Source of the DNA: an uncultured Gammaproteobacteria bacterium
GTDB lineage: Bacteria > Patescibacteriota > Microgenomatia > UBA10105 > UBA927
Assembly: GCA_964349125.1 (NCBI GenBank)
Contig: CAYGFH010000001.1
Span: 459,502 to 523,501 of the forward strand
Direction: 5' to 3'
DNA length: 64,000 nt
The position numbers were made by a program, and so were the translations under genes. The notes beneath the pieces were generated by a model that was not told the DNA's origin, made no database searches, and worked only from the letters and a program-made list of their open reading frames with translations. The stretch's first letter is position 1, and every line of letters starts with the position of its first letter. Of this stretch, positions 17,526 through 63,038 are shown in pieces.

Positions 17526-18153
17526 TCCAGTTTGTGAAGTTCCAGAGTGTGTGGGCTATAACCGTTGGAATTATTGACCCTGTTTCCAGAAATATGTACC
17601 CATAAAAAAATCCCAATATTCCCAACTGCATCGAATACAGCAAGGCATCAGAGACACCATAGTGCAAGACAAATAAAATAATCGGCACATGGATTAACAC
17701 AAAGACTATCGCTTGAAGTATCGTGGCGACTAATGCACCTGCCGTTATATCTGCTATACGCCTGGTGAAGTATCCTCTATAGACCAGTTCTTCACTAAAC
17801 CCGGTGGCAAGAGAGATAAAAAAAGGCAACAGCGAGCCCTGTAGAGATATGCTGAGTGATCCGTATTTCAGCCGCTGCATAAGCAGTGACTCCGCGACCA
17901 AAAATGCTCCGGCAGCAAGTCCGATACCGATATGAAACAGTGGTGTTTTTGATCCGATGGAGAGTGAGGACAGTGATTTCTTTTCCAGAAATACGACAGT
18001 GAGAATAATAGGCAGTATCTGAAGCAGCGGTTTGGCTATAAACTCATCCACCCATTCTGGAGAAGTTACGAAATATCGGTAGAGTGTCCAGGAAATAAGT
18101 ATAACGATATATACATATATCCATTGATATTTTCCTGAAGTGAATGTGGACAT
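17515..18153 (-). CDS. CPBP-family intramembrane metalloprotease (CAAX protease/Abi)
   Basis: Polytopic; motif 1 'FSEELVYRGYF' (EExxxR), motif 'FVLIHV', C-terminal 'AHTLWN'. Confidence 0.75.
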   Translation of the reverse strand: MSTFTSGKYQWIYVYIVILISWTLYRYFVTSPEWVDEFIAKPLLQILPIILTVVFLEKKSLSSLSIGSKTPLFHIGIGLAAGAFLVAESLLMQRLKYGSLSISLQGSLLPFFISLATGFSEELVYRGYFTRRIADITAGALVATILQAIVFVLIHVPIILFVLHYGVSDALLYSMQLGILGFFYGYIFLETGSIIPTVIAHTLWNFTNWIVR

Positions 18154-18240
18154 AGTTTGAGTATATCAAACATCAAATCATCATAATCCGGGAGTATAAC
18201 AATGCCACCTCGGAGGTGGTATTCTGTATTTGATTTCCAC

Positions 18241-18266
18241 CAAAACCCCGCCTTTCGGCGGGGATT
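18241..18266 (-). terminator. rho-independent terminator downstream of groEL
   Basis: Perfect 7-bp stem 'ccccgcc/ggcgggg' (18245-18262) with 4-nt loop; on the minus strand it is followed by a T-run; second hairpin 'ccacctcggaggtgg' at 18205-18219. Confidence 0.55.
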
Positions 18267-18303
18267 TGGTTAATTACGTTTTAGTATCTTTTTTTGGATT
18301 AGA

Positions 18304-20278
<1,975 letters not shown>

Positions 20279-20415
20279 AAAGACCTCCTTATTTTGGTAA
20301 TTCGATATGCAAATGTACAAATCTAATTGGTATAGCGCGCTAAAGTCTACCAACAGATTTTTTCACTCACATCTCGATATTTTTACGTTATCACTCAATC
20401 GAAGTGACTGCTATT

Positions 20416-21315
20416 TTATCTGCAGTAAAATACAATGTCAAGGGGTATGTTCCGCTTTTTTAATCGTTTTTCCAGAGCTTTTTTAATCCACACTCTTGCA
20501 TCACGAGGATGAAACCGTAACACGCTATTAGTCACAATTTCGTTCGTCCGTCGCTTCGACATATACCATAGTTGAGCATAACGAGCAGGCAACTCAAAAC
20601 ACCGAAGGATAGTTCGAGAGACATGTGTCCACCAGTGTGAAACTTTCGGATGTTGGTTACGACCGACTTTCTTTATATCCCACGCAACCGGAAGATATTG
20701 TTTTGTCCAACTGTTTGCCTGCAAGAACCTTCTATAGGTATCTTTTCGTGACCAAAGCGGCTCCATTTGGAGGACTTCATGTGCTGAAAACAAATCCTGT
20801 TCAGAGACAGGAATTTGCATACTATCGTCCCCAATAAACATATTTAGGCAAATAAGATTCGAGACGCGGCGGATCCCTGGAGTACGCCGTTTTGCAAATA
20901 GCGCCGCTATAATTGTTACCAACAATCTGGTAATCCAAACTGTGCCACTGGAAGTTATGAAAAAAAGATCAATATCATCAGTGACAGCTGCATTATTTAC
21001 GGCAAGACCCCCTGTCACACCAACCAAATATATAGTTGGGATAATGCGGAATTTAGCGGCGATCTCGCGGGCGATTTTCCATTTCTGTTTTGAATGATCC
21101 CGACGCTTAATATATGTTTGTACAATGTCATCACGACCTTTAAGGAAACGGAAATAATTACTTTTCTTTACACCTCTTATGACTCTGTTTCTGATATTTT
21201 TCCCCGGCACGTATCTGATACTCCGGAAATAAATATCATCATCAGTTAGTGGATAATCGAATATATCCGCATAACACACTGTCGCGTACAAATAGTCTGC
21301 TCGTGATAAACGCAT
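20416..21315 (-). CDS. hypothetical protein with Pol-beta-type nucleotidyltransferase motif
   Basis: 299 aa; 'VGVTGGLAVNNAAVTDDIDLFFIT' fits minimal NTase motif hG[GS]-x10-DhDh; no other recognisable domain. Confidence 0.4.
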   Translation of the reverse strand: MRLSRADYLYATVCYADIFDYPLTDDDIYFRSIRYVPGKNIRNRVIRGVKKSNYFRFLKGRDDIVQTYIKRRDHSKQKWKIAREIAAKFRIIPTIYLVGVTGGLAVNNAAVTDDIDLFFITSSGTVWITRLLVTIIAALFAKRRTPGIRRVSNLICLNMFIGDDSMQIPVSEQDLFSAHEVLQMEPLWSRKDTYRRFLQANSWTKQYLPVAWDIKKVGRNQHPKVSHWWTHVSRTILRCFELPARYAQLWYMSKRRTNEIVTNSVLRFHPRDARVWIKKALEKRLKKRNIPLDIVFYCR

Positions 21316-24389: not shown

Positions 24390-25115
24390 ATGTCTGACAA
24401 ACAACTCGAAATAATGACAGAGATAGTAGGCTTAAATATTGGCATTGGAATCAAAGATGTAGTTCCAACCGAAGATAATACTTCCGCTCATAATATATTG
24501 CTAAACAGTGGACACTCTTTAAATGAATTTTTACCTAAAGGAATTAAATTTATAGTCGATAAAGAAGATCCAGCCGCTTTTTCACCATTGAAAAATATTA
24601 TATATTTCAATCCTGATTTGTTAAGAAACCCGAACTATCTAGCGATGTTAGCTCATGAATGTGGACATTCTTTAGTGAAAAATCCAAAAAAAACACATCT
24701 AGATTACCTACAAACCGGTCACGAAATTGTTTACGATATTCGTTTCAAAACACTTCCATTAAGTGATCGTCTTAAAAAGATATTTTCCTTAATGAAACTT
24801 GATTTAGATAACGAAATTGAAGCATCACACAATGGTAAAATCGTGGCAGATTTATTGGGTGCTGATCCCATTGCTTATGAAGATATGATATCAATTTCGT
24901 TAAAAAATCACTTTTGGTTCAACATGCTAAGCACTCAAAAACTCTTCGAGTTATCATGTCCTGATATTAAAGATGACACTCTAGTGGAATATTATAATCC
25001 GTTTACACAAGATGTCATACAAATTTCATATGGAGAATTCAGAAAAATAAGTATGAAATCAAAAGATGAAAGTGCAAAGACTATGGTAGAAATTCGAAAT
25101 AAAGTAAATATATGA
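24390..25115 (+). CDS. hypothetical protein with HExxH motif (putative zincin-like metallopeptidase)
   Basis: 241 aa; 'LAHECGHSL' followed 19 aa later by 'GHE'; no other recognisable motif. Confidence 0.35.
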   Translation: MSDKQLEIMTEIVGLNIGIGIKDVVPTEDNTSAHNILLNSGHSLNEFLPKGIKFIVDKEDPAAFSPLKNIIYFNPDLLRNPNYLAMLAHECGHSLVKNPKKTHLDYLQTGHEIVYDIRFKTLPLSDRLKKIFSLMKLDLDNEIEASHNGKIVADLLGADPIAYEDMISISLKNHFWFNMLSTQKLFELSCPDIKDDTLVEYYNPFTQDVIQISYGEFRKISMKSKDESAKTMVEIRNKVNI

Positions 25116-44883: not shown

Positions 44884-45915
44884 TTAGCGGCGTATTCGTA
44901 TGTGTAGATCAAATGGTGTTTCTTTTTTCGCTGGGTGTTTCAGTACGAGGAAATATCTCCCAGCAACAGGCACTCTCATTTCCAAATTTGATTCGTGGCG
45001 TAACACTGTAGGTCCATAACTGTATAGTTCAACAGTGGCTTCAATGCCATCAAGACTAACAGGTTTTCGTACAGTAAATGTGACAACATCCCCTTTAAAT
45101 GCAACAAAAGTATACGCAGCAAATGATTCCGAATACGCTTGAGTTGTTTTAAATACGCCGCCACGGATTACAGAGTGCGAATATATATCAATATCCTGGA
45201 ATTCTATCCCGTGGTACGGCACTTGCGGTGATGGGACGCCGGTATATGCGTCCATAGACCCAATAAATGTGGGCGCTCCGGTATAAAATTCCAGAGAACC
45301 CACAATTTCATCGGATAGAGTTTTATACTCGGGTGAGATGACAGTCACGCCCACTTCATAGAATAATTGGGGCGTTTCTATATAATAGTATTTCGTCGTA
45401 TAGTCGGAGTATGCGACTGTGTGAATAACAACGGGGTGAATACCTAATGTCCCGTATGAACAACCATATACACGTTTGAGAAAGCCAATAATATTTGTCA
45501 CTGGTTTTCCGGAGTGATCCGGCATAGATGCATGTCTCGAGTAGCTGGTGATACCAATTGCAGCGCCATTCTTTCCATATCCATGGAATTGTATGTTTGG
45601 ATTGTTCACACAGTACTCTTCTCTGCAGGAATCATTTCGAACCCAATCGCCCGGTATCGTCATACGAAAACCTAATTCATCGCTTGAGATCACTTTGGGG
45701 TTTTGGATTGACGATGTTCCGATAGATAATCGCTTGGGAACTATAAATAAGGGCTCCCTGCACTGCTCCAGTTGTATACGTGAAAATCCCGACAATCCAA
45801 ATTTATTGTGAAGCTTTGCCCAATACAGAAATGTGGCCACACAACAAACGATAAGGATGGAAGATAAAAGCAGAAACGTTCTCGAAATTGTTCTCTTGGT
45901 GTTGTGTGCGCGCAT
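44884..45915 (-). CDS. membrane-anchored extracytoplasmic hypothetical protein
   Basis: 343 aa; signal-anchor 'FLLLSSILIVCCVATFLYW'; Tyr/Thr-rich beta-rich C-terminal region; no known motif. Confidence 0.5.
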   Translation of the reverse strand: MRAHNTKRTISRTFLLLSSILIVCCVATFLYWAKLHNKFGLSGFSRIQLEQCREPLFIVPKRLSIGTSSIQNPKVISSDELGFRMTIPGDWVRNDSCREEYCVNNPNIQFHGYGKNGAAIGITSYSRHASMPDHSGKPVTNIIGFLKRVYGCSYGTLGIHPVVIHTVAYSDYTTKYYYIETPQLFYEVGVTVISPEYKTLSDEIVGSLEFYTGAPTFIGSMDAYTGVPSPQVPYHGIEFQDIDIYSHSVIRGGVFKTTQAYSESFAAYTFVAFKGDVVTFTVRKPVSLDGIEATVELYSYGPTVLRHESNLEMRVPVAGRYFLVLKHPAKKETPFDLHIRIRR

Positions 45916-47460: not shown

Positions 47461-48168
47461 TTACAATTTCTTAATCACACAGACAGTCTTACTTCCCTTA
47501 CTGCCACGCTCTAAAGCCTTCTCCAGAAGAAAAATAACGCCTTTCATGCAGGACTCCTGAGTTGCCCCTGTTTCCTCGGAAGCGATACGGATATCATCTT
47601 CTGTTATAACGCGAGACACACATACTGATGCGAGGATGAGTACATCTCCCGGTACGATAGTCTCAGCTATAGTCTCAGGAATTGCACCAGATCTGGCAAA
47701 CCCGAGAGCGCGAATTGTAGATATCTCGGAGTTTTCTGTTTTGTACGTCAAATCGTCTACCAGACCTTCCCGGACAAAATACAGACCAATATTCCCTATC
47801 GATCCTATCCAAATTTTACGCACACCCAATAGAACCACGCTGAATGTGCAGGCAAGTCCTTCGGAAAAAGTCGGTTCTTTTCGTTTCTGCCAGAGTGACA
47901 GGTTAGTGGTACGAAACATGCGTTCTATCAATTTGCCTTTATCCTCCCAATAGTATGGGCGTTGGCGAACATGCCGATAGCACCACAGAGCTGTTTCAGA
48001 TGCAAATTGTGAGGCAACATCAGGGTGAGGAAGTGTCACTACACCGGTCGAGAGTGCAACGCACTCGTTTCCAAGTAGGGAGATACTGTCTGTATGTCCT
48101 GATACTTCATCAGGCAGTTGACTGTACGCCACTATATACCCACAGGAAAAAGCGTCGGACATACGCAT
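47461..48168 (-). CDS. PP2C/SpoIIE-like domain protein with substituted metal-binding residues (possibly inactive)
   Basis: 'IWIGSIGNIGLYFVREGLVDDLT' aligns to the PP2C 'VGDSRAYLLR.G.L.QLT.DH' motif but lacks the Asp; 'VPGDVLILASVCVS' stands in place of the 'GD.LLLCSDGL' motif without the catalytic Asp. Confidence 0.45.
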   Translation of the reverse strand: MRMSDAFSCGYIVAYSQLPDEVSGHTDSISLLGNECVALSTGVVTLPHPDVASQFASETALWCYRHVRQRPYYWEDKGKLIERMFRTTNLSLWQKRKEPTFSEGLACTFSVVLLGVRKIWIGSIGNIGLYFVREGLVDDLTYKTENSEISTIRALGFARSGAIPETIAETIVPGDVLILASVCVSRVITEDDIRIASEETGATQESCMKGVIFLLEKALERGSKGSKTVCVIKKL

Positions 48169-48889: not shown

Positions 48890-51130
48890 GTGAAACAAAA
48901 GAAAATAAAACCGGTATTACTTTTACCCAAAGTGGCAGCCTCTGCCGATCTCCCCCCGGCTCCTGCAACGCATCGCCTGAAATGGACATATATATTTTGG
49001 GTGATACCTCTGAGTATTATTATTGCAATATATGTACTTATATTTCGGGGCCTCCCTTCCCCTACGTCACTCGGCACATATGAGATACCGCTTGCAACCA
49101 AAGTATATGATCGAAACGGTAAACTGCTCTATGATATTTTTGCTGATCAAAACAGGACGGCCGTACCGCTATCGAAAATTCCAAAGCACTTACAACATGC
49201 AACTATAGCAATTGAAGATAAGGATTTTTATAACCATCAGGGTATTAATCCCGTGGGAGGAATGCTTCGTGCCGTTACCGCAACCATTACAGGGAGAAAA
49301 CTTCAGGGAGGATCCACCATCACCCAACAGCTCGTGAAATCTGCACTTCTCACGCCTGAGAGAACAGTGATCCGCAAAGTAAAGGAAATTATTCTGGCAA
49401 TTTGGGTAGAAGCAATATATTCGAAGGATAAAATCCTGGAGTTATATCTAAATCAGGTTCCGTACGGCGGAACTGCATGGGGAGTCGAATCAGCTGCAGA
49501 GCGTTACTTTGGCAAAAAAGTCGAAGAACTCACGCTTGCCGAATCGTCCCTTTTGGCAGGACTGCCACAAGCACCGACCCTCTATTCCCCGTTCGGAACC
49601 CATCCGGATTTGGCAAAAAACAGGCAGCGAGACGTGTTAAAACGCATGGTGACAGACAAATATATTACACAGGAGCAAGCTGATGCGGCGGCTAAAGAGG
49701 AACTTGTATTTAAAAGGGATATTGGACTGAAAGCCGGACATTTTGTCATGTATGTGAAAGATCAGCTGGTCCAAAAACTGGGTGAAGCGGTTGTGGAAAA
49801 AGGTGGTTTGAAAGTTATCACAACCCTTGATCTGGAGCTCCAAGAATACGCGCAGGCAACAGTTGCAGCAGAAGTTGAGAAAATCAAATACCTCAGGGTT
49901 GGAAATGGCGCGGCACTCATCACAAAACCGGCAACAGGAGAGATACTCGCCATGATAGGCAGTACAGACTATTTTGCCACACCGTCGGGAAGCTATAATG
50001 TCACGACAGCGCTTCGACAACCGGGATCATCGATTAAACCTATTAACTACGCTATCGGCATAGAAACAAAAAAAGTTACGCCAGCAACAATTTTTCTTGA
50101 TATACCGACCTGTTTTGGCGTCGTGAACCAATCGTCCTACTGCCCAAAAAATTATGACGGTAAATTTCATGGGCCGGTTGCCCTTCGTATGTCTCTCGGC
50201 AATTCTCTAAACATACCAGCCGTAAAAATGCTGAAAATTAACTCAGTTGAAACAATGATTGCATCAGCAAGCGGCTTTGGGCTTGACACGTTGAAAGATC
50301 CGAAGCAGTACGGACTATCGCTCACACTCGGTGGCGGTGAGGTGCATATGACTGATATGGCTGAAGCATTTGGCGTATTTGCAAATGGCGGTATACGAAA
50401 AAATCTTGTTTCAATACTAAAAGTTACCGATAAAAACGGTAAGGTTATCGAAGAATATAAAGATCAAAACCTTAAGCAGGAAATACCATCACAACTACTG
50501 CTTCGTGGACCTCGGGTGCTTTCGCCCGAAACGGCGTTTCTTATCTCGCACATGCTTCTGGACAACAACGCGCGCATGGGGGCATTCGGTCCAAATTCAG
50601 AACTGGTAATTCCAAAACATGCGGTATCGGTAAAAACAGGCACCACAGATGATTTGAGAGACAATTGGACAATTGGATATACACCGCAATATTTAGTCGC
50701 AACATGGGTCGGCAATAACGACAATTCCCCGATGAATCCGTCTCTTGTATCAGGTGTCACGGGTGCGGCTCCAATATGGCATAAGCTCATGCAAAAAATG
50801 CTTGAAGGAAAGAGCGATGTATGGCCAAAACAACCGGATGGGATCGTTGGGGCAAGGGTATGCTCGCTTTCAGGATTACTCCCACCGAATGATGGAGACG
50901 ATCCAGGATGTGCCATACGGTTCGAGTATTTTATAAAAGGGACAGTGCCGACAGAGCGTGAACAACTAAAAAAATCAGTTCTTATTGACAAAGATACCGG
51001 AGATATCGTTCAACCGGGCAAAGCGGGAGCGAATGTTGAACCCCAGGAGAAGCTAATTTTGAAGGATCCGCTCTCTGAATATTGCCTTGATTGCCAACAC
51101 CCGGAAAACACCAGAACCTACATAAAATAA
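48890..51130 (+). CDS. class A penicillin-binding protein (bifunctional glycosyltransferase/transpeptidase, PBP1A)
   Basis: Signal-anchor, GT51 motifs 'ATIAIEDKDFYNHQGIN' and 'GGSTITQQLVKS', transpeptidase SxxK 'GSSIKP', SxN 'LGNSLN', KTG 'KTGTTDD'. Confidence 0.92.
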   Translation: MKQKKIKPVLLLPKVAASADLPPAPATHRLKWTYIFWVIPLSIIIAIYVLIFRGLPSPTSLGTYEIPLATKVYDRNGKLLYDIFADQNRTAVPLSKIPKHLQHATIAIEDKDFYNHQGINPVGGMLRAVTATITGRKLQGGSTITQQLVKSALLTPERTVIRKVKEIILAIWVEAIYSKDKILELYLNQVPYGGTAWGVESAAERYFGKKVEELTLAESSLLAGLPQAPTLYSPFGTHPDLAKNRQRDVLKRMVTDKYITQEQADAAAKEELVFKRDIGLKAGHFVMYVKDQLVQKLGEAVVEKGGLKVITTLDLELQEYAQATVAAEVEKIKYLRVGNGAALITKPATGEILAMIGSTDYFATPSGSYNVTTALRQPGSSIKPINYAIGIETKKVTPATIFLDIPTCFGVVNQSSYCPKNYDGKFHGPVALRMSLGNSLNIPAVKMLKINSVETMIASASGFGLDTLKDPKQYGLSLTLGGGEVHMTDMAEAFGVFANGGIRKNLVSILKVTDKNGKVIEEYKDQNLKQEIPSQLLLRGPRVLSPETAFLISHMLLDNNARMGAFGPNSELVIPKHAVSVKTGTTDDLRDNWTIGYTPQYLVATWVGNNDNSPMNPSLVSGVTGAAPIWHKLMQKMLEGKSDVWPKQPDGIVGARVCSLSGLLPPNDGDDPGCAIRFEYFIKGTVPTEREQLKKSVLIDKDTGDIVQPGKAGANVEPQEKLILKDPLSEYCLDCQHPENTRTYIK

Positions 51131-51176: not shown

Positions 51177-53726
51177 ATGGATCGTCATAGCAGTGTGAAC
51201 AGCGAAAAGCAGCCTCAAATACCATTTTATATATTCCCTATTATCGTACTTATATGGGTATTTATAGCCATAGGATCCTTAGTCAGACGGACAATAAGCG
51301 CGCTTTTCTACCCTTTCGTACTGGCTTATAGCACTGTAAAAACATTGTTGTATGAGCTGGTAGCCGGCATACGAAGCTGGATTCAGGAAAAAAAACATCT
51401 CCGCGCGAGCAAAAAACAGATAAAACCCCCATCTGTTGAAGCAATTCGCAGACAACAGGTCCAATTAGGGTACAAAAGCTCAAAACTATCGCTTACAGAG
51501 CAATTTAACCTTCTCAGAGAGGCAACCCGAAGCACGTTTATATCACTGAAGCAGAAGATTTCATTGCACCAACAGGCCAAGAGAGAAAGATTGGCACGAA
51601 AGAAAGAGAAAATGAAGCAGGTTTCCATCGCACAAAAAGAGATACCACGCACCGGGCATTTTCAGGCATTCAAGAGTTGGTTTTCAGGATTAGCCGTCCA
51701 CAAGCACCAAAGAAGTGTACCAGATACTGGCAGTATGCAGATTCCAACCAAAGGCACGTCCATTGATATGTGGAAGTCGTTTATCACGGGAATTGCCTGC
51801 ACAATTATTTTTGTATTTGCACCATACGAAGGGTATCACTGGCTTATGGCGCTTCCAAACCCGCAACTGCTTTCCAGGCGCGATCTTCAGGTAACCACGA
51901 AAATTTTTGATAGAAAAGGCGTGCTTCTCTACGAGATCTATCAGGACCAAAATAGAACGCCCCTTCCGCTTGAATCAATACCAAAAACTATTATACATGC
52001 GACTATTGCTATAGAAGATAGAGATTTTTACAGACATCAAGGCATATCACTCAAGGGCATCATACGTGCGTTTAGAGAGACCGTATTTAACAAGCGTGTT
52101 CAGGGAGGATCTACTATCACACAACAATTGATAAAATCAGCGCTCCTGTCCCCTGAAGTAAAAATAACAAGGAAAATTAAAGAGGTATTATTGGCGTTTT
52201 GGGCTGAGAGACTGTATTCGAAGGACGAATTACTGGAAATGTATCTTAATCAGGTTCCATATGGAGGGACTGCATGGGGCATCGAAGCCGCAAGCCAAAC
52301 ATTTTTTGGCAAAAGCGCAACCGAATTAAATCTAGCAGAGGCGAGCTTACTCGCAGGTCTTCCCGCAGCACCTACAGAGTACTCCCCGTTTGGCTCGCAT
52401 CCCGAAAAAGCATTTGACAGGCAAAAAGAAGTGCTTCGTCGGATGCAGGAGGACAGATATATCACTAAGGAACAGGCAGATGAAGCACGTGAAACACAAA
52501 TAGTGTTTGCTACACCAAATACGGCTATTCGGGCACCCCACTTTGTTATGTATGTAAAAGAACTGCTTGAAAAGCGGTATGGACAGAGACTGGTAGACCA
52601 GGGAGGATTGCAGATAAAAACATCACTAGATATATCCCTTCAGGAGAAAACTGAAGAACTTGTTTCAAAACATATTGATGCACTTGCATCACTCAATGTA
52701 GGTAATGGCGCCGCACTGGTTACTAATCCAAAAACAGGAGAAATTCTCGCAATGGTAGGAAGCAAAAATTACTTTGATTTAGAATCAGACGGAAACGTAA
52801 ATGTGACAACGTCACTGCGGCAACCGGGATCATCCATAAAAGTTGTTAACTACGCAGCCGCGCTCGAGAACGGCTACACTGCTTCAACAATTATCGATGA
52901 TTCTCCGATCACGTTTCCAAATGTGGGAAGCACTCCGTACGCTCCAGTCAATTATGACGGCAGATATCACGGAGCGGTTCCGTTTCGCTATGCGCTAGCA
53001 AATTCGTACAATATTCCTGCTGTTAAAATACTCGCCAAAATTGGCGTACCGACTATGATTGCAGCCGGAAAAAATATGGGAATTTCAACATGGAACGATG
53101 AAAATAGATTTGGGCTGTCACTCACACTCGGCGGAGGTGAGGTCACTATGCTTGATATGACAAAAGTCTATGGCACGCTGGCAAATGAGGGTAGAAAGAC
53201 AGAATTGCACCCGATTCTTGAGGTCACAGACTACGCGGGTCGCGTGTACGAAAGAAATACTTCTCCTCGAAGTGTCCAGGCACTGAAGCCTGAAACCGCT
53301 TGGATTATTTCAAACATCTTAAGTGATAATACGGCAAGAATTCCTGCATTTGGTCCAAATTCAAGTCTCGTTATACCGAACAAAACAGTATCAGTAAAAA
53401 CGGGAACCACGGACAATAAGCGTGACAATTGGACTATCGGGTACACGCCATCATATGTTGTCTCCGTATGGGTGGGAAATAATGATAACACGCCAATGAA
53501 TCCGTATCTCACTTCAGGGATTACGGGAGCAGCTCCGATTTGGCATGATATAATGGTCGAATTGCTGAAAAATTCGCCGGATGAAGTGGCAAAAAAACCT
53601 GATACTGTTGTTTCAATCCCCTGTTATTTCGGGCGAACAGAATTTTTTATCCAAGGAACACAACCGCAAAGTGGCAGGTGCGCGCCGATGCCGACCCCTA
53701 GCGTATCTACAACACCAACACCCTAG
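51177..53726 (+). CDS. class A penicillin-binding protein paralog with ~230-aa two-TM lysine-rich N-terminal extension
   Basis: GT51 'ATIAIEDRDFYRHQGIS', 'GGSTITQQLIKS', TPase 'GSSIKV', 'LANSYN', 'KTGTTDN'; N-terminus has TM1 (~res 18-38), K/R/Q-rich segment, TM2 (~res 200-220). Confidence 0.9.
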   Translation: MDRHSSVNSEKQPQIPFYIFPIIVLIWVFIAIGSLVRRTISALFYPFVLAYSTVKTLLYELVAGIRSWIQEKKHLRASKKQIKPPSVEAIRRQQVQLGYKSSKLSLTEQFNLLREATRSTFISLKQKISLHQQAKRERLARKKEKMKQVSIAQKEIPRTGHFQAFKSWFSGLAVHKHQRSVPDTGSMQIPTKGTSIDMWKSFITGIACTIIFVFAPYEGYHWLMALPNPQLLSRRDLQVTTKIFDRKGVLLYEIYQDQNRTPLPLESIPKTIIHATIAIEDRDFYRHQGISLKGIIRAFRETVFNKRVQGGSTITQQLIKSALLSPEVKITRKIKEVLLAFWAERLYSKDELLEMYLNQVPYGGTAWGIEAASQTFFGKSATELNLAEASLLAGLPAAPTEYSPFGSHPEKAFDRQKEVLRRMQEDRYITKEQADEARETQIVFATPNTAIRAPHFVMYVKELLEKRYGQRLVDQGGLQIKTSLDISLQEKTEELVSKHIDALASLNVGNGAALVTNPKTGEILAMVGSKNYFDLESDGNVNVTTSLRQPGSSIKVVNYAAALENGYTASTIIDDSPITFPNVGSTPYAPVNYDGRYHGAVPFRYALANSYNIPAVKILAKIGVPTMIAAGKNMGISTWNDENRFGLSLTLGGGEVTMLDMTKVYGTLANEGRKTELHPILEVTDYAGRVYERNTSPRSVQALKPETAWIISNILSDNTARIPAFGPNSSLVIPNKTVSVKTGTTDNKRDNWTIGYTPSYVVSVWVGNNDNTPMNPYLTSGITGAAPIWHDIMVELLKNSPDEVAKKPDTVVSIPCYFGRTEFFIQGTQPQSGRCAPMPTPSVSTTPTP

Positions 53727-54340: not shown

Positions 54341-54607
54341 TTACTGTTGTGGTCTGTCCTCACGAGGCCGTGATTCATTTACCACCAATGGTCTCCCATC
54401 GACATCTTTACCGTTGAACAGTTCAATTGCTTTTTTTGTCTCTTCTTCTGATGACATCTCTACAAATCCAAATCCGCGTGATCTCCCGGAATATTTATCC
54501 GATATGATTTTCGCTGAAATAACTGTTCCTGCGGCCGCGAATAATTCTCCGAGCTTCGCACTATCGTATGAGTATGGGAGATTTCCTACAAATAAATTCG
54601 TCGCCAT
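54341..54607 (-). CDS. RRM-type RNA-binding protein
   Basis: 88 aa; RNP2 'LFVGNL' and RNP1 'RGFGFVEM' motifs of the RNA recognition motif. Confidence 0.85.
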   Translation of the reverse strand: MATNLFVGNLPYSYDSAKLGELFAAAGTVISAKIISDKYSGRSRGFGFVEMSSEEETKKAIELFNGKDVDGRPLVVNESRPREDRPQQ

Positions 54608-55671: not shown

Positions 55672-56130
55672 TTATCTTGTTACTGAAATTGTTGCTCCTA
55701 GCTCTGCTGCCGGCGCTGATACCGTGATACGGTTGTCTGCTGCGCTTCTCACTACTGTGTATGCAGTATCATATGCCGCTGTACAATCCGTAACAGGTGC
55801 TCCGTTATTTGTTAATGGATCGACAGGTAATGCAGCCAGATATTGCGTCATAAGGGAAGAACAGATATCCGCCCCTGTGTTTGCGACATTCTGCGAGGCC
55901 GTTGTAATGCCTGTTGGCAATGTGCCCCGATTATCAGCGGCGAACTGTCCGATGGCATTCAAAATCGCGTTTACGTCACTGGCGCGTTTTGTATTATTTG
56001 CCTGCGAGAACTGACGAGCAGGATTTATGGCGATTAATGTGATTGCCAAAAGTACCGCCAAGATACCGATGACAACGAGCAACTCGATGAGCGTAAAACC
56101 TTTACGCCCCATAGGCAGTGTGTTTTTCAT
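55672..56130 (-). CDS. type IV pilin (probable major pilin, PilA-like)
   Basis: Class III signal 'MKNTLPMGRKG/FTLIELLVVIGILAVLLAI' (prepilin cleavage/N-methylation motif with Glu+5); 152 aa; two C-terminal Cys (disulfide loop). Confidence 0.85.
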   Translation of the reverse strand: MKNTLPMGRKGFTLIELLVVIGILAVLLAITLIAINPARQFSQANNTKRASDVNAILNAIGQFAADNRGTLPTGITTASQNVANTGADICSSLMTQYLAALPVDPLTNNGAPVTDCTAAYDTAYTVVRSAADNRITVSAPAAELGATISVTR

Positions 56131-56181: not shown

Positions 56182-56868
56182 TCAGCGATACTGCAGATAC
56201 ACCACGACACTTAGAGCCAGAAGAAGAAAACCGAACACAGATAGCAATAATGGCAGACTGGATTTTTTTGTCGAGGGTGAGTTAACATCTCCGGTAGAGA
56301 TATTCGTACTGGGTGCACTGTATTCGAATGAATCGAGTATATTAAATTTCGACAACTGATCAAGATGTTCCGTAATATATGTGGCGAGAGGAACATTTAA
56401 CGCATGTTCTTTTTCATACTGCCCCAACGCAAAAGCAGGAATGATTGATTTAACAGGTAACCCCTGAAGCAGAAACCCTTGGTGCATCCCATCAAAGAAC
56501 GCTTTATTAAACGCAATGGCTCGTTTACCATTTTTTATCGGGTACACTTTTGACCAAATCAACTCATATGGCACCATATCGAAGAATTTCAGGATTTGTG
56601 TTTCCATTTGTGGAAATTCCGATGCCAAGAATATTTTCTCAAAATATACTGATTCAGAGAAGATAAAGACGATCTGTGATCCTACTAACCCATATTGCTT
56701 TACCCATTGCTTAATCAAGGAATAGAGACCATCCTTCGATAAAATTTCAAAGTCCGAAACAATTGTGTTCGGTATTTGCACCGTAATAATTCCTGGCGCT
56801 CCTCCACCATACATATAGATCGCAAATCGATCAACAAATATTAACAATAATGATTTTTGATTAAACAT
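56182..56868 (-). CDS. hypothetical protein with C-terminal TM anchor, pilus-locus associated
   Basis: 228 aa; C-terminal 'LPLLLSVFGFLLLALSVVVYL'; located between pilin genes in the same orientation. Confidence 0.4.
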   Translation of the reverse strand: MFNQKSLLLIFVDRFAIYMYGGGAPGIITVQIPNTIVSDFEILSKDGLYSLIKQWVKQYGLVGSQIVFIFSESVYFEKIFLASEFPQMETQILKFFDMVPYELIWSKVYPIKNGKRAIAFNKAFFDGMHQGFLLQGLPVKSIIPAFALGQYEKEHALNVPLATYITEHLDQLSKFNILDSFEYSAPSTNISTGDVNSPSTKKSSLPLLLSVFGFLLLALSVVVYLQYR

Positions 56869-56902: not shown

Positions 56903-57295
56903 TTATATTTCCTGCCAGGAAATTAAGTTCAATACCCCATTTGTAAATGTAGCAGTGACGCGCAACGCCTTTTGATACGAACCTCGTGTTCCGGTGGAAA
57001 TAATGGTTTTGGTTGACCCACCCGTGACAGAAATCATTACGGAATCATCCCCAATTGACATCGTCTCTCCACTATACGTCGTATCTCTCAGAAGTCGCAA
57101 CAATGCATTTTCCACACCATTTTCCGCCAATTCCAGAGCGTGATTTCCTTCCTCTTCCTGCATAGTGTTAAAAGAGCTCGACACAGTAAGGGCAACCGCT
57201 GTGGTTACAAGAGTCACAGCTATAACCATATAGAATAACAAGATGATAAGAGCCTGACCAGACTCTCTACTAATATGATTTAGATCAAATTTCAT
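56903..57295 (-). CDS. PilX-like minor pilin / pseudopilin (atypical N-terminus)
   Basis: 130 aa; N-terminal hydrophobic 'SGQALIILLFYMVIAVTLVTTAVAL' like PilX-type pseudopilins, lacking the canonical Glu+5. Confidence 0.45.
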   Translation of the reverse strand: MKFDLNHISRESGQALIILLFYMVIAVTLVTTAVALTVSSSFNTMQEEEGNHALELAENGVENALLRLLRDTTYSGETMSIGDDSVMISVTGGSTKTIISTGTRGSYQKALRVTATFTNGVLNLISWQEI

Positions 57296-57298
57296 ATG

Positions 57299-57793
57299 CT
57301 ATCTCAACGCAAAAGTTGTACTGAATGAGCGATTTTCTACTCCTTGTCTTCGCGTAATCAAGCTGGTGAGCGTGAAATCAATTTTAATACTCTGTTTACC
57401 TCCGCTAGTACCCAAGCGTTGAAATGTCATATTGGATACCGATGTATCTACATTATTTAAACGTATCGTCCCCAGAGCATTGGTTACCTCAAAATTACCA
57501 TTATTTGCTGCATATGTATGAGAATTTCCGTTAATTGTCAATTGTAATACTCCCGAAGAGCTTGCAAGAGTGTCTGGAATAGTAATGCCAGAGGCTCGCC
57601 CCATATCATAGGATAATCTCGAAAAAACATATCGCCCGTCCTGCGCCAGTGAAGAGTGTGATTCAGATGATAATTGAGTCTCGATAAGTGATGAGAACAA
57701 CGCAGTAAGTACCGCTAAAAATGACATAAGTATTGCCCCATATATCATCATTTCAACGAGTGTAAAACCAGATTGAGCATGCGTATGTTTCAT
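57299..57793 (-). CDS. type IV minor pilin (PilW/PilV-like)
   Basis: Prepilin motif 'AQSG/FTLVEMMIYGAIL'; 164 aa. Confidence 0.8.
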   Translation of the reverse strand: MKHTHAQSGFTLVEMMIYGAILMSFLAVLTALFSSLIETQLSSESHSSLAQDGRYVFSRLSYDMGRASGITIPDTLASSSGVLQLTINGNSHTYAANNGNFEVTNALGTIRLNNVDTSVSNMTFQRLGTSGGKQSIKIDFTLTSLITRRQGVENRSFSTTFALR

Positions 57794-57796
57794 AGT

Positions 57797-59737
57797 TTAA
57801 GGCGAGTAGTTTATGACAATATCCTCAAAAATCGGTGATTGCAGCCGATCCAGCGTATCAAAATACACTTTATATCTAAGACACTGGGCGGGATTTTTAT
57901 ATGGACCCGAGGAACTCAGCGGCAACGCGCTAGACGTTGCAAAAAACGTTGTATCTGTTTTATCCGGTCCGATAAAAGTATAAGCTGCATTACTGCAGCT
58001 ACCTGACACCGCATCGGTTATTGCAAACTGGTATCTGATGTTAGTCTGATTCGGAATAGTTGATTGGACATCAAACCGATTAAATGTAGCTGATTTTGTA
58101 GCATCAAATATGGAAGAGGTAAATGTCCCTGACACCGCATACTGACCCCCGGGACCGCCCTCTATAATCTTCAGCTCACTGCTTGAATCGCCAGTAATGA
58201 TATATGAATAGGCATCTCCGTCAGATTCAAGAATCGATGACACTCCGTTCACTCCACTATCAATGTTTAGCCCACCACAATATGATGGATTTGCCTCATT
58301 GACGATATTGATCGCCTGATACTCTTCTCCGCCTATACCCACGATAATTGCTTTATTTCCCGGAACAATAGTTATACCCTTTGGGTTCATGCCGCTGGTA
58401 TCGTAACTTCCGATCGGAGTATGGTTTCCTGATTTAGTGCTTATATCGAGAATGAACAATTCTCGTTGTGTGAACGAGGTTTTTGTTGCAAGATACGCTC
58501 GGGTTGCGGTCGGGTTCACAAATACATCAATTCCCTCCTGGGCAGTAAGCTGGGCTTGTCCGACGACTACAAGGTTTGAGGTATTGCTTACATCAAGAAT
58601 TTGCAATTGAGTTGATGTTGAATTTACTGCCACATACGCAAACGTCCCGACAACCATTATCTTATTTCCTATACCAGCAAGCGTCACACCATCCGCATCC
58701 AGCGCGTTTCTCGAACCTGACTTACTGGATAGATCAAATGTATATAACGTATTGCCAGCGGTCATGTACCCGGTGTTCCCAGAAACATACACACTGTTTC
58801 CATTCCCATTTCCCGGCGCATTAAAGTATCCGGACTCGCTATATTTTCCTGTGGAGGGATTGTATGAGGTTAAATCTATGATTTCTATCTCTTTTGTGTT
58901 CGTATCCGTCGCCAGGTATGCGTAATTCGATTCACCGAACACACCATTTGTTTTATATCCGTCAAACTCACCCGCAATGCTCGCGACAGGAGGACGATCA
59001 TTACTGATCATAACATTTGCAAACGAGACCCCTGATGCGTTGTCACCGGTCCCGGCAAACACTCTCCCCTCAATAGATGTCACAGCATTTGCTACACCAC
59101 TTTTAGGCAAATCGTGAGCAGCGATAGATAAGTTAGGAGAACACCAATCCCCGCCGCCCCCGGCACCAAGCGTTACTTCCCCACCGTTTGTATTTGTGAT
59201 TGTCGAATTCACAAGTGCTCCTGAAGAAAAATCAGATTGAGATGATTGCGTATACACCTGATTAGTAAATCTTGATATATACAGTTGCGATGTGACAGAG
59301 TAAGGAAACAATGCTGACCAAGCGACTGTAATGGTAATCGCTTTGGTAGATGGATCTATTGTTCCTCCCTGTGAGACAAGCGATCCCGATTCATCTCGAT
59401 ACGCATCTGCAATTTCAATCGATCTTGTTTGAGAGTTGATCGTTTCTGCACCTGGAACCAAAATCCAATCTGATCCTGATACTACAGGATGATATGTCCC
59501 GTTTGCGGAAATATATTCCCATCCTCGCTCACGGATTATGCGCAAAGCCTCACGAGCCTCTCTGACAAGCATGGTTGCCTGAGATCGTTCGATTTGTTGA
59601 ACTTTTCCTTGACTGGCACTCACAAATCCGGTAATAAGCGCCGGCAATAACACTGTCGTCAATGCCAGCGCAAGCAACAGCTCCACGAGTGCGGCGCCAC
59701 GTTGCACATGTACTCTATGATTCTTGCGTTTCTCCAT
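57797..59737 (-). CDS. giant minor pilin / pilus-tip adhesin candidate (646 aa) with prepilin-type N-terminus
   Basis: 'QRGAALVELLLALALTTVLLPAL' pilin-like N-terminal helix followed by ~600-aa Gly/Thr/Ser/Asn-rich beta-rich domain. Confidence 0.7.
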   Translation of the reverse strand: MEKRKNHRVHVQRGAALVELLLALALTTVLLPALITGFVSASQGKVQQIERSQATMLVREAREALRIIRERGWEYISANGTYHPVVSGSDWILVPGAETINSQTRSIEIADAYRDESGSLVSQGGTIDPSTKAITITVAWSALFPYSVTSQLYISRFTNQVYTQSSQSDFSSGALVNSTITNTNGGEVTLGAGGGGDWCSPNLSIAAHDLPKSGVANAVTSIEGRVFAGTGDNASGVSFANVMISNDRPPVASIAGEFDGYKTNGVFGESNYAYLATDTNTKEIEIIDLTSYNPSTGKYSESGYFNAPGNGNGNSVYVSGNTGYMTAGNTLYTFDLSSKSGSRNALDADGVTLAGIGNKIMVVGTFAYVAVNSTSTQLQILDVSNTSNLVVVGQAQLTAQEGIDVFVNPTATRAYLATKTSFTQRELFILDISTKSGNHTPIGSYDTSGMNPKGITIVPGNKAIIVGIGGEEYQAINIVNEANPSYCGGLNIDSGVNGVSSILESDGDAYSYIITGDSSSELKIIEGGPGGQYAVSGTFTSSIFDATKSATFNRFDVQSTIPNQTNIRYQFAITDAVSGSCSNAAYTFIGPDKTDTTFFATSSALPLSSSGPYKNPAQCLRYKVYFDTLDRLQSPIFEDIVINYSP

Positions 59738-59738
59738 A

Positions 59739-60302
59739 CTATTGAACTTCGGTTATAACACCATATGCATTTATATATATAGTCTTCGTCACACTACTGT
59801 TGGATTCACTGAGTGACACGGTATTTGCACCCTGAGTATATCCTGCTATCTCGCCGCTTCCGGACAAAAAAACAATTGACTGACCGGGGAATCCGATAAA
59901 ATTCGCATACACAGGAGTTTTAAATTGAATAACGGTATTTGTCGGATCGCTTTGGGTATATGATATCCCAGAAAACAAAGTGTATTGATTTGATGCAATA
60001 TGTACTCCATATCCAGGAGAAACAATACCATTATTTGTCTTACCCATCATTGCTTTTGATTGCTGGCTTCTCAAATCAGCTATAAAAATGTCAACAGCTT
60101 CCGTTAAATTCGCTGACCGCTGTGAACCAAGTACGCTCATGGTAGCAAGACTTAAAAGTGTAAGCATAATACTGATAACTACTAATGTTTCCACAAACGT
60201 AAATCCCAGTCTCCGAATACTGCTTTTTCTATATGAAGAACAATTGATATATCCGTATATTTCTTTTACATCCGCATTACCAGCATGTGTGAGTGAAGAC
60301 AT
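59739..60302 (-). CDS. type IV minor pilin (FimT/GspH-like)
   Basis: 'RRLG/FTFVETLVVISIMLTLLSL' prepilin motif; the track ORF has an unusually long 33-aa leader, so the true start may be an internal non-ATG codon. Confidence 0.7.
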   Translation of the reverse strand: MSSLTHAGNADVKEIYGYINCSSYRKSSIRRLGFTFVETLVVISIMLTLLSLATMSVLGSQRSANLTEAVDIFIADLRSQQSKAMMGKTNNGIVSPGYGVHIASNQYTLFSGISYTQSDPTNTVIQFKTPVYANFIGFPGQSIVFLSGSGEIAGYTQGANTVSLSESNSSVTKTIYINAYGVITEVQ

Positions 60303-60303
60303 A

Positions 60304-61356
60304 TTATCTGGTACCTACCTGACTGATTAAACCGTATATTGGTGAAATAATCGCGAGCATCATACCTCCAACTGCAAGCCCTACAAATACCAATAAAATT
60401 GGCTCGAGAAGGGCCGTAAGTGTTTTTAATGTATTGGATACCTGATACTCAAAATAATCAGAAATATCCTGCATGGATTTATCGAGAGAACCAGTTTTTT
60501 CTCCCGCTTCCATAAGCTTAATCATGATGGATGGTATATACCCTTTGGCAGCACGAAACCCTTCAGATAATGACTTCCCTGAAAAAACCATGTCACGCGA
60601 CTGCGCAATAATCTTTGAGGTACGCTCCTTAACGACCACATCCTTCGTCAGTTCCAGTGCTTGAGTTATGGGAAGACCGGAAGATAACAGTAGATATAAA
60701 CTTCTAGAAAATCTTGTGATATCAATTTGCTCAACCAGTGTGGAGATAATTGGTAATGAAAAAAAGAAATTCAAAAATATTTTTTTTTGTTTTTTGTACA
60801 ACAAATAGAACAGGAAAAAAACTACTATAGTACCAAGAAGAACGGGTATAGTCTGTTTTAAAAGAAGATCTGAAACAAACATCATCATTCGGGTTGGAAG
60901 GGGCAACGTAATATGCATTCGTAAAAATACTGTACTTATTTTCGGAACAACAAACGTAAGTATCATCAAAAGCACTCCGGTGAAAACCACAACGATAAAC
61001 GAAGGGTACATCATTGCTGAGCGAATTTTATCGTTGAATTCAATGTCCTTTTGTACTGTTCGCTTGAGGTCCCGTAGGGTAACATCCAGTGTTCCTGCTT
61101 CTTCAGATGCTTTTATTACATTTACGGTAACTTTATCAAAAACCTGAGGGAACTTGATAAGTGTTTGATGCATATGTTTTCCTTGCATCAGATCATCATA
61201 CATAGTGTCCAATATTATCTTTTGCCCGCCCTTCATATCTTCTCTGAGAGAATTAACTACTTCCAGGATTGGAATACCGGCGGTAAGCATGGTAGATAAA
61301 CTGCCGACAAATTCCAATTTTTCACTGCTGCTGATCGTAACTTTATCTTCTCTCAT
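60304..61356 (-). CDS. pilC: type IV pilus assembly platform protein PilC (GspF family)
   Basis: Two T2SSF repeats, three TM helices, 350 aa; 4-nt overlap with upstream pilB. Confidence 0.9.
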   Translation of the reverse strand: MREDKVTISSSEKLEFVGSLSTMLTAGIPILEVVNSLREDMKGGQKIILDTMYDDLMQGKHMHQTLIKFPQVFDKVTVNVIKASEEAGTLDVTLRDLKRTVQKDIEFNDKIRSAMMYPSFIVVVFTGVLLMILTFVVPKISTVFLRMHITLPLPTRMMMFVSDLLLKQTIPVLLGTIVVFFLFYLLYKKQKKIFLNFFFSLPIISTLVEQIDITRFSRSLYLLLSSGLPITQALELTKDVVVKERTSKIIAQSRDMVFSGKSLSEGFRAAKGYIPSIMIKLMEAGEKTGSLDKSMQDISDYFEYQVSNTLKTLTALLEPILLVFVGLAVGGMMLAIISPIYGLISQVGTR

Positions 61357-63038
61357 AAATTTTCCACTTTTGTGACACGTAATACTTCTTCGATTGTGGT
61401 AAATCCTTTTTTCACTTTATCCAGACCATCATCTAACATGGTATTCATACCTTCAGCTATTGCCTGTTTATTTATTTCATCCGAATCGCTGTTGAGAGAG
61501 ATAAGCCGCTTAATTTCTTTTGATACCTCAAGTACTTCAAATACACCGAGACGTCCTAGATACCCTGTTTTGTGACAGACTTTGCATCCGGCGCCAGCAT
61601 AGAGTGAGACCGTTTCGCCAGATCCGAAGTGTGAGTCGATCATATGGGGGGCAATGTGTTTTTCCAGTTCGGCTCGCGGCATCGTAATTTGAGCTTTACA
61701 TGAATCGCATATTTTTCGAAGTAACCTTTGGGCTATAATCAGATTCACAGTTGATGCCACAAGAAACGGTTCAACCTTCATATCGCTAAGTCTTGGTATT
61801 GCGGTTGCAGCATCATTTGTATGAAGTGTTGAAAGCACCAAATGTCCTGTCAGAGCTGCGTTTACCGCGATAGCTGCGGTTTCACTATCACGGATCTCTC
61901 CGACAAATATTATATTCGGATCCTGTCTCAGGATACTTCGTAGACCGTTCGCAAAAGTCAGGTTGGTCTTCACGTTTACCTGTACCTGACTCGCACCTTT
62001 TACTCTATATTCCACCGGATCTTCAATTGTTGTGATATTTTTATCACGGGTATTTAATATTTTTAAAATTGCATATATTGACGTGGTTTTTCCGGACCCT
62101 GTCGGGCCGGTGGATAAAATCATGCCGTACGATTTACTGTATGCGTTATTCACCTTTTTCAGATCGGGTTCATTCATGCCTAAATCCGCGAGTGAATACT
62201 CCCTCGAGTTTGAAGACAGAATACGGAGCACCGCCTTTTCCCCTTCCGAAACTGGGAGGATTGAGACACGTATATCAATTTGCTCCTCTTCAAGAGCAAT
62301 CCGCATTTTGCCGTCCTGTGCGCTTAAATGTTCATCCGTTCGAAGGCTGGAGAGTACTTTTATGCGTGTCATTATCCGGTCGTGTAATGCCTTTGGAACA
62401 CGAAGTACATCATGTAGGACACCATCTATACGAAACCGTATGAGGGAGTTATTCTCTTCAGGTTCTATATGAACATCCGATGATTTATCCTGATACGCAC
62501 TATCCAGTAACACATCGACAATTTTTGCGATAGGTAAATCATCTGAAACCAGTGTCGTTGCTTTTTTAATATCTTCGCGGAGCAATTCATCTATAGTCTT
62601 CTGGAGAACTTTTTTGTAAATCTGGAGCGTATTTTCCACATCCCTCTCGGTGGCATAGTATATGATTACTTTCTGATTCGTTTTTTTGGCTACCATGTCT
62701 ACCAGATCGGTAATTTTTGGATCGATCATGGCAATCTGCACACCATCCGGTACTCTGCCAAATACAACGGTTTTATACTTTCTGGCAATTTTTTCAGGTA
62801 TTATATGGAATACCTCTTCGGGGATAGCAACCTTTGATAACACGACAAACGGAACTTTGAGATACGATGCCACTATGGCACCAATTTGATCGTCAGAAAC
62901 CACCCCTTTATCTATTAGTTCATTCACAAAAGATCCGTGTGAAGCAATAGACTGATCTCGAACCTCCTGTATACGTTCTTGCGGCGCCACAGAATGTTCG
63001 ACTAGCAATGATTGAAGCTGGTCATCGGGCAGTATCAT
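61353..63038 (-). CDS. pilB: type IV pilus assembly ATPase PilB (GspE family)
   Basis: Walker A 'GPTGSGKTTS', Asp/His boxes, tetracysteine Zn site 'CDSCK...CKVCHKTGY', N1 domain. Confidence 0.93.
   Translation of the reverse strand: MILPDDQLQSLLVEHSVAPQERIQEVRDQSIASHGSFVNELIDKGVVSDDQIGAIVASYLKVPFVVLSKVAIPEEVFHIIPEKIARKYKTVVFGRVPDGVQIAMIDPKITDLVDMVAKKTNQKVIIYYATERDVENTLQIYKKVLQKTIDELLREDIKKATTLVSDDLPIAKIVDVLLDSAYQDKSSDVHIEPEENNSLIRFRIDGVLHDVLRVPKALHDRIMTRIKVLSSLRTDEHLSAQDGKMRIALEEEQIDIRVSILPVSEGEKAVLRILSSNSREYSLADLGMNEPDLKKVNNAYSKSYGMILSTGPTGSGKTTSIYAILKILNTRDKNITTIEDPVEYRVKGASQVQVNVKTNLTFANGLRSILRQDPNIIFVGEIRDSETAAIAVNAALTGHLVLSTLHTNDAATAIPRLSDMKVEPFLVASTVNLIIAQRLLRKICDSCKAQITMPRAELEKHIAPHMIDSHFGSGETVSLYAGAGCKVCHKTGYLGRLGVFEVLEVSKEIKRLISLNSDSDEINKQAIAEGMNTMLDDGLDKVKKGFTTIEEVLRVTKVENL

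Follow-up and report, generated by a model that had tools for sequence, protein, structure and literature searches.

Type IV pili belong to the small set of surface machines that are conserved in CPR (candidate phyla radiation) bacteria, or Patescibacteria, and they drive the attachment of Saccharibacteria to host bacteria. In the type IVa pili (T4aP) of Pseudomonas, Neisseria and Myxococcus, the tip beta-propeller of PilY1/PilC stands with four core minor pilins and serves adhesion and priming. Modular pilins, in which a functional module that is likely tip-exposed is grafted onto a pilin module, were described by Raynaud et al. 2021 (PMC8179133), with PilB (pilin plus vWA) and PilC (pilin plus lectin) of Streptococcus sanguinis as examples. 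Dataset S1 of that paper contains IPR012902-IPR013211 (pilin plus LVIVD) architectures in several copy numbers, IPR013211 being the database entry for the LVIVD repeat, and a Falkowbacteria pilin with 12 LVIVD repeats is reported; the LVIVD pilins were only counted and given as 'of unknown function' (PMC8179133). In Nanosynbacter lyticus TM7x (Saccharibacteria), the T4P-2 minor pilin PilX2 carries a seven-bladed propeller of the RCC1 type at its C-terminus and lacks a predicted PilD signal; it has been proposed to be a tip adhesin, and its deletion halves host binding with thin pili still being made (PMC11623550). The 64-kb window analysed here (the whole stretch of DNA, not the gene in question) contains a pilus operon whose fourth gene, at 57797..59737 (-), encodes a protein of 646 amino acids. 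We put the probability that this protein is a modular core minor pilin in the tip complex of the type IV pilus of a Gottesmanbacteria-like Microgenomates CPR bacterium at roughly 0.8. The full reading, in which its large head also binds an extracellular ligand at the pilus tip, is drawn from analogy with described pilins and is considered moderately probable.

Gene identification and composition

An earlier note on this DNA had proposed that the open reading frame (ORF) encodes a giant minor pilin. The ORF was recovered with exactly the same coordinates and with an ATG start, and an identical protein has been called on a contig of ~810-840 kb. A word-indexed search returned more than 844 homologues, the top 120 of which were all full-length with 50-82% identity, and an exhaustive search of representatives clustered at 50% identity gave 323 at E<=1e-30, 904 at E<=1e-10 and 2534 at E<=1e-3. 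The identical protein called elsewhere and the many homologues indicate that this is a real gene and no chance ORF. A database look-up of the exact protein gave no product name; some database sources label its relatives prepilin-type or PulG-like.

The part of ~600 amino acids beyond the N-terminal helix, which had been called rich in Gly, Thr, Ser and Asn, proved to be so: the mature protein contains 39.7% Gly/Ala/Ser/Thr (GAST) and 6.5% Asn. The GAST content of the other pilins of the locus is 37-40%, while that of the cytoplasmic PilB and PilC is 24.6%. The composition of the protein is of the extracellular type and pilin-like.

Prepilin N-terminus and pilin module

The N-terminus of the protein is MEKRKNHRVHVQRG/AALVELLLALALTTVLLPALITGF, where the slash, here and in the motifs below, marks the predicted cleavage point; the N-terminal string quoted in the earlier note, GAALVELLLALAL, corresponds to residues 14-26. 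The leader peptide (residues 1-14, 59696..59737 (-)), as read from the sequence, is short and basic with Gly-1 at its end. It is the least conserved segment of the protein, with 18% identity across the family, where leaders have a median length of 11 amino acids and a net charge of +2. The alpha-1 helix follows (residues 15-71, 59525..59695 (-)), with A+1, E+5, a hydrophobic alpha1N segment and the invariant Pro32; the copy in the window reads AALVE19 and then the hydrophobic LLLALALTTVLLPALITGFV. In an alignment of 36 family members, Gly-1 (G14) and Glu+5 (E19) were at least 90% conserved and P32 was invariant, with the consensus G/QSLVELL. Glu+5 was present in 211 of the 218 proteins with a recognisable motif (out of 237 family proteins) and in 77 of 79 genomic loci. 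The +1 residue among the family proteins was Gln in 165, Phe in 17 and Ala in 7.

The structure was predicted with AlphaFold2 using the family alignment (mean predicted local distance difference test, pLDDT, 86.2; predicted template modelling score, pTM, 0.72). In the model, an alpha-1 helix of ~60 residues (11-71) is packed on an antiparallel beta-sheet (80-155); the beta-strand segment of the pilin module lies at 59258..59524 (-), with a pLDDT of about 80-92 for these strands. The protein is thus predicted to have the lollipop fold of pilins. Cysteine counts were even in 211 of 222 short forms of the family (four in 164 of the 222) and six in 15 of 15 double-propeller forms, which is consistent with extracytoplasmic disulfides. 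The family-wide Gly-1 and Glu+5, the predicted pilin fold, the pilin-like composition, the even cysteine counts and the pilB-pilC-pilin operon described below support the proposal of a giant minor pilin.

Propeller and jelly-roll head

The pilin module is joined to the head by a Gly-rich linker or neck (residues 161-200, 59138..59257 (-)), which ends in the conserved motif GGEVTLGAGGxGDWC(199). Identity across the family reaches 78% in residues 181-200, where W198 and C199 are invariant, and the pLDDT of the neck is 65-89. The head consists of a seven-bladed beta-propeller of the LVIVD-repeat type (residues 201-530, 58148..59137 (-)) and a C-terminal jelly-roll beta-sandwich (residues 531-646, 57800..58147 (-)), the latter preceded by an invariant GGPGG hinge and carrying the conserved Cys581 and Cys619. 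AlphaFold2 predicted a 28-strand, seven-bladed propeller followed by the beta-sandwich, so that both of the folds offered as alternatives in the earlier note are present in the model. The Pfam LVIVD family (PF08309 / IPR013211) matched residues 355-394 with 33.3 bits against a cut-off of 20.2, and 35 of 36 relatives also matched it. With a pilin module, an LVIVD propeller and a jelly roll, the protein has the make-up of a modular pilin.

The invariant Cys199 directly precedes blade 1, in the motif DWCxP, and the invariant Cys487 is in the first strand of blade 7. A predicted disulfide between these two residues would clasp the propeller ring shut. In relatives of ~1020 amino acids the propeller is followed by a second one in tandem, which has a WCxP...CGG cysteine pair of its own; this supports one disulfide per propeller. 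Such double-propeller relatives include P0014, P0026 and P0073, and at locus L083 (10001-13057) the modules are arranged as pilin-propeller-propeller-jelly roll. The position of the double-propeller genes in the operon is unchanged, and an extra gene of 302 amino acids is inserted after them.

The jelly roll appears lectin-like in the model, and no Pfam family matched this C-terminal module. Searches of PDB sequences with the protein itself and with full-family, pilin-module and C-terminal profiles gave nothing significant, the weak matches being to pilin N-terminal helices only. Fold searches with the whole model returned generic WD40-type propellers only, with no PilY1 and no specific functional relative. 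For the C-terminal jelly roll, the best structural neighbours were podophage tail or nozzle proteins (PDB 9nwi_Y, 8jov_A, 7z47_G and 8vbx_A); a Foldseek search with the whole propeller-plus-sandwich model likewise returned 9nwi_Y and 8vbx_A. No homologue of the head was detected in 50,697 phage genomes by tblastn or in a pattern scan of IMG/VR, which places this likeness at the level of fold only; a common origin of the propeller plus jelly-roll head and podophage nozzle or tail proteins is a more speculative suggestion. An EF-hand or PilY1-like calcium site in the conserved segment ESDGDAYSY...GD was considered and rejected as unsupported, position 5 being Tyr.

Pilus operon and class of minor pilin

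The operon has the order pilB-pilC-p187-646-residue gene-p164-p130-p228-major pilin p152, all on the (-) strand, and adjacent genes from pilB through p130 either overlap or are separated by gaps of 1-3 nucleotides. The first gene, pilB (61353..63038 (-)), encodes a PilB/GspE-type assembly ATPase (Pfam T2SSE, 1.2e-127, and MshEN; TIGR02538, 5.8e-158). It is overlapped by 4 nucleotides by pilC (60304..61356 (-)), which encodes a PilC/GspF-type platform protein (Pfam T2SSF, 1.8e-46; GspF, 2.1e-67). The third gene encodes p187 (59739..60302 (-)), a GspH/ComGD-like minor pilin with a G/F...E motif (ComGD, 4.6e-7, and GspH, 1.1e-6, both sub-threshold), and stops 1 nucleotide ahead of the start codon of the 646-residue gene. 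Over 78 loci, the p187 family had G/F in 59 and E5 in 67.

Three further pilin genes are located downstream. The protein p164 (57299..57793 (-)) is a minor pilin with G/F...E in the GspJ/ComGF position (N_methyl, 21.3 bits against a cut-off of 21.2, and a weak ComGF match), with E5 in 65 of 76 loci. It is followed by p130 (56903..57295 (-)), a GspK/PilX/ComGG-like cap pilin with the motif G/QALII and a weak GspK match; Glu was found at +5 in 0 of 74 loci and Gln at +1 in 57 of 74. The last gene encodes p152 (55672..56130 (-)), the probable major pilin, with G/FTLIE (N_methyl, 34.1 bits; TIGR02532, 4.4e-8; GspG-like, 1.3e-9). Class III-type N-termini were found in the window only in the five pilin genes of this operon, for p187, the 646-residue protein, p164, p130 and p152. 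Between p130 and p152 lies p228 (56182..56868 (-)), which has one transmembrane segment at its extreme C-terminus, a GAST content of 24% and a cytoplasm-like composition, and matched nothing in Pfam or NCBIfam. Of 80 loci, 50 had a detectable p228, with about 25% identity. The operon lacks the alignment proteins PilM/N/O, and p228 may stand in for them.

The absence of Glu+5 is a hallmark of GspK/PilX/ComGG cap pilins. The gene order here follows H-I-J-K, with the GspH/ComGD-like p187 first, the 646-residue protein second with E5, the ComGF-like p164 third and the E5-less p130 last. When the pilin module alone was compared for 25 family members, sub-threshold matches were to ComGE in 15 of 25 (best 1.1e-4), GspI in 7, XpsI in 5 and PilV in 1, and no member matched the GspI, PilV or ComGE equivalog hidden Markov models (HMMs) above the cut-off. 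The weak HMM matches, the gene order and the logic of the motifs would place the protein at the I position of an H-I-J-K tip complex, that of GspI/PilV/ComGE, beside the E5-less cap pilin p130.

The +1 residue divides the pilins of the locus into two groups. Gln at +1 is common to the family of the 646-residue protein (69 of 79 loci) and to that of p130 (57 of 74), while p187, p164 and p152 have G/F; the two presumed tip-most subunits thus have an unusual mature N-terminus.

Distribution across Microgenomates

At least 323 clusters at 50% identity make up the family, which spans Microgenomates and reaches Dojkabacteria. The architecture of ~640 amino acids is kept down to about 31% identity, and a member with 34% identity is annotated as Candidatus Dojkabacteria. 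Synteny with the pilus operon was observed in about 75 of 80 loci. The gene directly follows pilB-pilC-small pilin in the Dojkabacteria genome (34%) and in another case with 32% identity, and the gene order is unchanged in Levybacteria and in double-propeller loci. This family is a widespread and well-conserved core part of the pilus in Microgenomates.

The nearest named genomes to the window are Gottesmanbacteria, with identities of 71-74% for PilB and 67-69% for PilC. Several loci with a CPR-type operon (L006, L007, L009, L013, L016, L023 and others) have GenBank titles of 'uncultured Gammaproteobacteria' or 'Pseudomonadales', and such titles on CPR-type contigs probably represent mislabelled taxonomy of metagenome-assembled genomes. 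At locus L083, just downstream of the double-propeller pilus operon, a protein of 1302 amino acids (17221-21129) combines RCC1-repeat propellers with Peptidase_M23, a peptidoglycan endopeptidase; it is a possible factor for attacking the cell wall of a partner.

Conservation and the variable sector

Conservation was compared over long range in 80 species-representative loci from Gottesman-, Levy-, Ames-, Roizman- and Woesebacteria, as identity to the proteins of the window. Median identities were 61% for PilB, 55% for PilC, 51% for the 646-residue protein and 62% for the major pilin p152; those of p187, p164, p130 and p228 were 34.5%, 38%, 39% and 25%. Between the window and locus L085, identities were 97.5% for PilB, 82% for the 646-residue protein, 77-88% for the other minor pilins and 81% for a flanking LUD gene, and the major pilin has 99.3% identity with its closest relative. 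For locus L086 the values were 87% for PilB, 75% for the 646-residue protein, 50-65% for the other minor pilins, 50% for BacA and 68% for a class A penicillin-binding protein.

Nonsynonymous divergence (dN) from L085 was 0.120 for the 646-residue protein, 0.019 for PilB, 0.028 for PilC and 0.003 for the major pilin, and the values for p130, p164, p187 and the LUD gene were 0.109, 0.155, 0.173 and 0.106. Even in the comparison with the closest relative, synonymous sites are at saturation (proportion of synonymous differences, pS, 0.6-0.75), so that only dN rankings and the bound that dN is far below the synonymous divergence (dS) are usable. The protein is under purifying selection, with dN/dS well below 1.

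Conservation is not uniform along the protein. Within the family, identity was 66% in the propeller and about 52% in the pilin and jelly-roll modules. In the closest pair, blades 1, 2 and 7 were 93% identical and blade 4 was 60% identical. Blade 4 (residues 341-382, 58592..58717 (-)) forms a variable sector together with blade 5. Of the 42 residues of blade 4, 17 differ between the protein and its closest relative, compared with 17% overall (binomial p=2.6e-4), and entropy was 1.29 in blades 4-5 compared with 0.90 elsewhere (p=6e-5). The dN of blade 4 was 0.32, about 3.3 times the 0.10 of the rest of the propeller, and still far below dS. Rather than a hypervariable adhesin, the protein is thus a conserved scaffold in which a single sector, blades 4-5, is variable; any lineage-specific specificity would lie in these two blades.

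These results bear on two other explanations of the protein. According to the first, which is the full claim of the earlier note, the protein is a host adhesin that is specific to the strain and diversifies rapidly. The localised variable sector and the raised dN of blade 4 are what such an adhesin could show. However, the protein is above the other minor pilins both in median identity over the 80 loci (51% against 34.5-39%) and in identity to L086, the flanking metabolic gene has a dN (0.106) that matches its overall value of 0.12, and even blade 4 has a dN far below its dS. The comparison of divergence with the flanking pilins thus opposes the predicted fast variation, which is confined to blades 4-5 of a protein under purifying selection; this explanation is largely refuted for the whole protein and was rated as highly improbable.

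In the second explanation the protein is mainly a part for assembly, priming or capping, a pilin-anchored functional equivalent of PilY1 in which ligand binding is secondary or absent, and the conserved propeller nucleates or stabilises the tip complex or stops full retraction. In median conservation it comes close to PilC and PilB and far exceeds the other minor pilins, and its position right after pilB-pilC-pilin is kept even at 32-34% identity. Conservation is highest in blades 1, 2 and 7 and in the neck and hinge motifs that adjoin the pilin and jelly-roll modules, a pattern expected for inter-domain or inter-subunit interfaces. In Myxococcus, T4aP assembly is primed by PilY1 plus minor pilins, as cited in PMC11623550. 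Against these points stand the lectin-like jelly roll and the described adhesive pilins, on which the ligand-binding reading draws, and an exclusively or mainly structural role was considered possible but doubtful.

Proposed function and weighing of the evidence

The reading preferred here, of a modular tip pilin with a ligand-binding head, would involve the following steps. A prepilin peptidase encoded elsewhere in the genome would cleave the protein after Gly14, and the mature protein would then join p130, p164 and p187 in a four-pilin priming or tip complex, occupying the I position next to p130. The head would be displayed at the pilus tip, since its ~480 residues cannot fit into the filament body, and two predicted disulfides would hold it rigid. 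There, the propeller and jelly roll could bind a ligand outside the cell, for which a glycan or a surface protein on a partner cell is the most plausible candidate, as suggested by the lectin-like jelly roll and by the precedents of PilX2 and of PilB/PilC. The strong class-wide conservation implies a conserved partner, and either a common ligand or the adjacent tip pilins, or the two together, may fill this place. By analogy, a role as adhesin is plausible from PilX2 of TM7x (PMC11623550) and PilB/PilC of S. sanguinis (PMC8179133).

A DNA ligand was also considered. In this explanation the protein is the DNA receptor of a competence-type pilus, and DNA would offer a universally conserved ligand to nucleotide-auxotrophic CPR cells. 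Known DNA-receptor pilins use electropositive patches. The isoelectric point (pI) of the propeller is 4.4 (16 Lys plus Arg against 31 Asp plus Glu) and that of the mature protein 4.6, values for the bulk charge that argue against such a patch. In the Com pilus, DNA is captured at electropositive ComGD-ComGF surfaces and not at ComGE (PMC12153270), and here it is the D-like p187 and the F-like p164 that are the neutral to basic pilins (pI 7.8 and 9.2). Neither comEA nor comEC was found in the operon. A role as DNA receptor is most unlikely on this evidence.

Several observations weigh against the preferred reading. Pfam N_methyl (PF07963) gave only 11.8 bits (E=0.19) on the copy in the window, against a cut-off of 21.2, and a TIGR02532 scan of this copy gave no match. 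Alignment to a prepilin HMM, which the earlier note had named as a refuting test, thus gave a mixed outcome, below the cut-off for this copy and with matches for part of the family: 11 of 36 relatives matched PF07963 at E<=0.01 (best 2.5e-5), 6 of 25 matched TIGR02532 at E<=0.1, and some relatives are annotated as prepilin-type, so that at family level the proposal is not refuted by this test. The canonical +1 residue of pilins is Phe, but it is Ala in this protein and Gln in most of its relatives. The assignment to the I class is based on sub-threshold matches, and these come mainly from the N-terminal helix. No Peptidase_A24-like gene was found among the multi-transmembrane ORFs of the window, and no prepilin peptidase, PilT or PilM among the candidates scanned, which were a subset of its ORFs. 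Placement at the tip is a proposal drawn from the size of the head and the order of the genes. Finally, high conservation across lineages that presumably have different partners is a poor fit to a host-specific adhesin, and suits a purely structural or priming role equally well.

This protein is the obvious candidate for the pilus component in contact with the surroundings of the cell, and the best handle on what Microgenomates pili bind. The family is large, conserved and structurally well predicted, has no solved relative and is a fixed part of the pilus operon. Its conservation with one variable sector points to a conserved ligand or to a role in assembly. Residues 161-646 are a defined target for recombinant work, and blades 4-5 a defined region for host-association analyses. 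To our knowledge, Microgenomates have no cultivated representative.

A wider proposal, which we regard as tentative and rather unlikely in its entirety, is that the type IV pilus of Microgenomates/Dojkabacteria has in this family its universal 'head' across the class. One polypeptide would then combine a core tip minor pilin of the GspI/PilV/ComGE position, a PilY1-like propeller and a lectin-like domain, and would be required in priming as well as in recognition of a conserved surface structure of partner cells, with specificity tuned by blades 4-5 and double propellers as variants of expanded specificity. If true, propeller-tipped pili would have been reached by convergence in monoderm CPR bacteria, and the family would provide a sequence-readable marker for host-range prediction in a class without a cultivated member.

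Other features of the window

Scans for promoters and terminators of the operon gave counts equal to those in shuffled sequence and are hence uninformative, and no clear Shine-Dalgarno motif was seen upstream of the operon genes. A scan of the window with Rfam detected one tRNA only and nothing near the pilus locus. Two adjacent genes encode class A penicillin-binding proteins with transglycosylase and transpeptidase domains, at 48890-51130 (+) and 51177-53726 (+), the second of which has a Lys/Gln-rich N-terminal extension of ~200 residues ahead of its transmembrane segment. Between these genes and the pilus operon are genes for BacA, a small RRM-domain RNA-binding protein (54341-54607) and a cupredoxin-like protein. 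Four ORFs of 235-343 amino acids, at 20416-21315 (-), 24390-25115 (+), 44884-45915 (-) and 47461-48168 (-), had no Pfam match at E<=0.001.

Comparison with known systems

Within the GspI/PilV/ComGE class, the protein has the expected place as second in the H-I-J-K order, has Glu+5 and adjoins an E5-less cap pilin. It differs in size, as canonical members have about 100-130 amino acids and no extra module, and in its +1 residue, which is Gln or Ala in the family of this protein and Phe or Met in that class.

The protein had been called an analogue of PilY1 or ComP, and of this a loose functional analogy remains. It did not match the PilY1/PilC propeller signature PF05567 / IPR008707 in Pfam, and its acidic charge opposes a ComP-like DNA receptor. 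It also carries its own pilin module, whereas PilY1 is a non-pilin protein that docks onto the minor-pilin complex. Large tip minor pilins with beta-rich C-terminal domains that initiate assembly and bind ligands are described, as discussed in PMC8179133, for type IVb pili (CofB/TcpB) and for Thermus (ComZ). The extra folds of CofB/TcpB and ComZ (a beta-repeat plus beta-sandwich, or a beta-solenoid) differ from the head described here, with no sequence or structural match seen.

PilX2 of TM7x is, like the 646-residue protein, a CPR minor pilin with a C-terminal seven-bladed beta-propeller. The propeller is of the LVIVD type here and not of the RCC1 type (no RCC1 model matched), the Gly-1/Glu+5 signal is present, and there is an additional jelly roll. 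TM7x pilins show BLAST coverage of only 10-25% outside Saccharibacteria (PMC11623550), which suggests that the two propellers, compared here by description only in the case of PilX2, are probably independent grafts.

The closest match in design is with the modular pilins of PMC8179133, with which the protein shares the N-terminal pilin module, the linker, the grafted non-pilin module and the predicted display at the tip. Unlike the catalogued pilin plus LVIVD proteins, it has two grafted modules, the propeller and the jelly roll, and is a core minor pilin of the operon and not an accessory one; its family is also unusually conserved and includes a double-propeller form. Modular pilins and a propeller-bearing CPR pilin have already been described, and this family adds a member to them and not a new kind of system.

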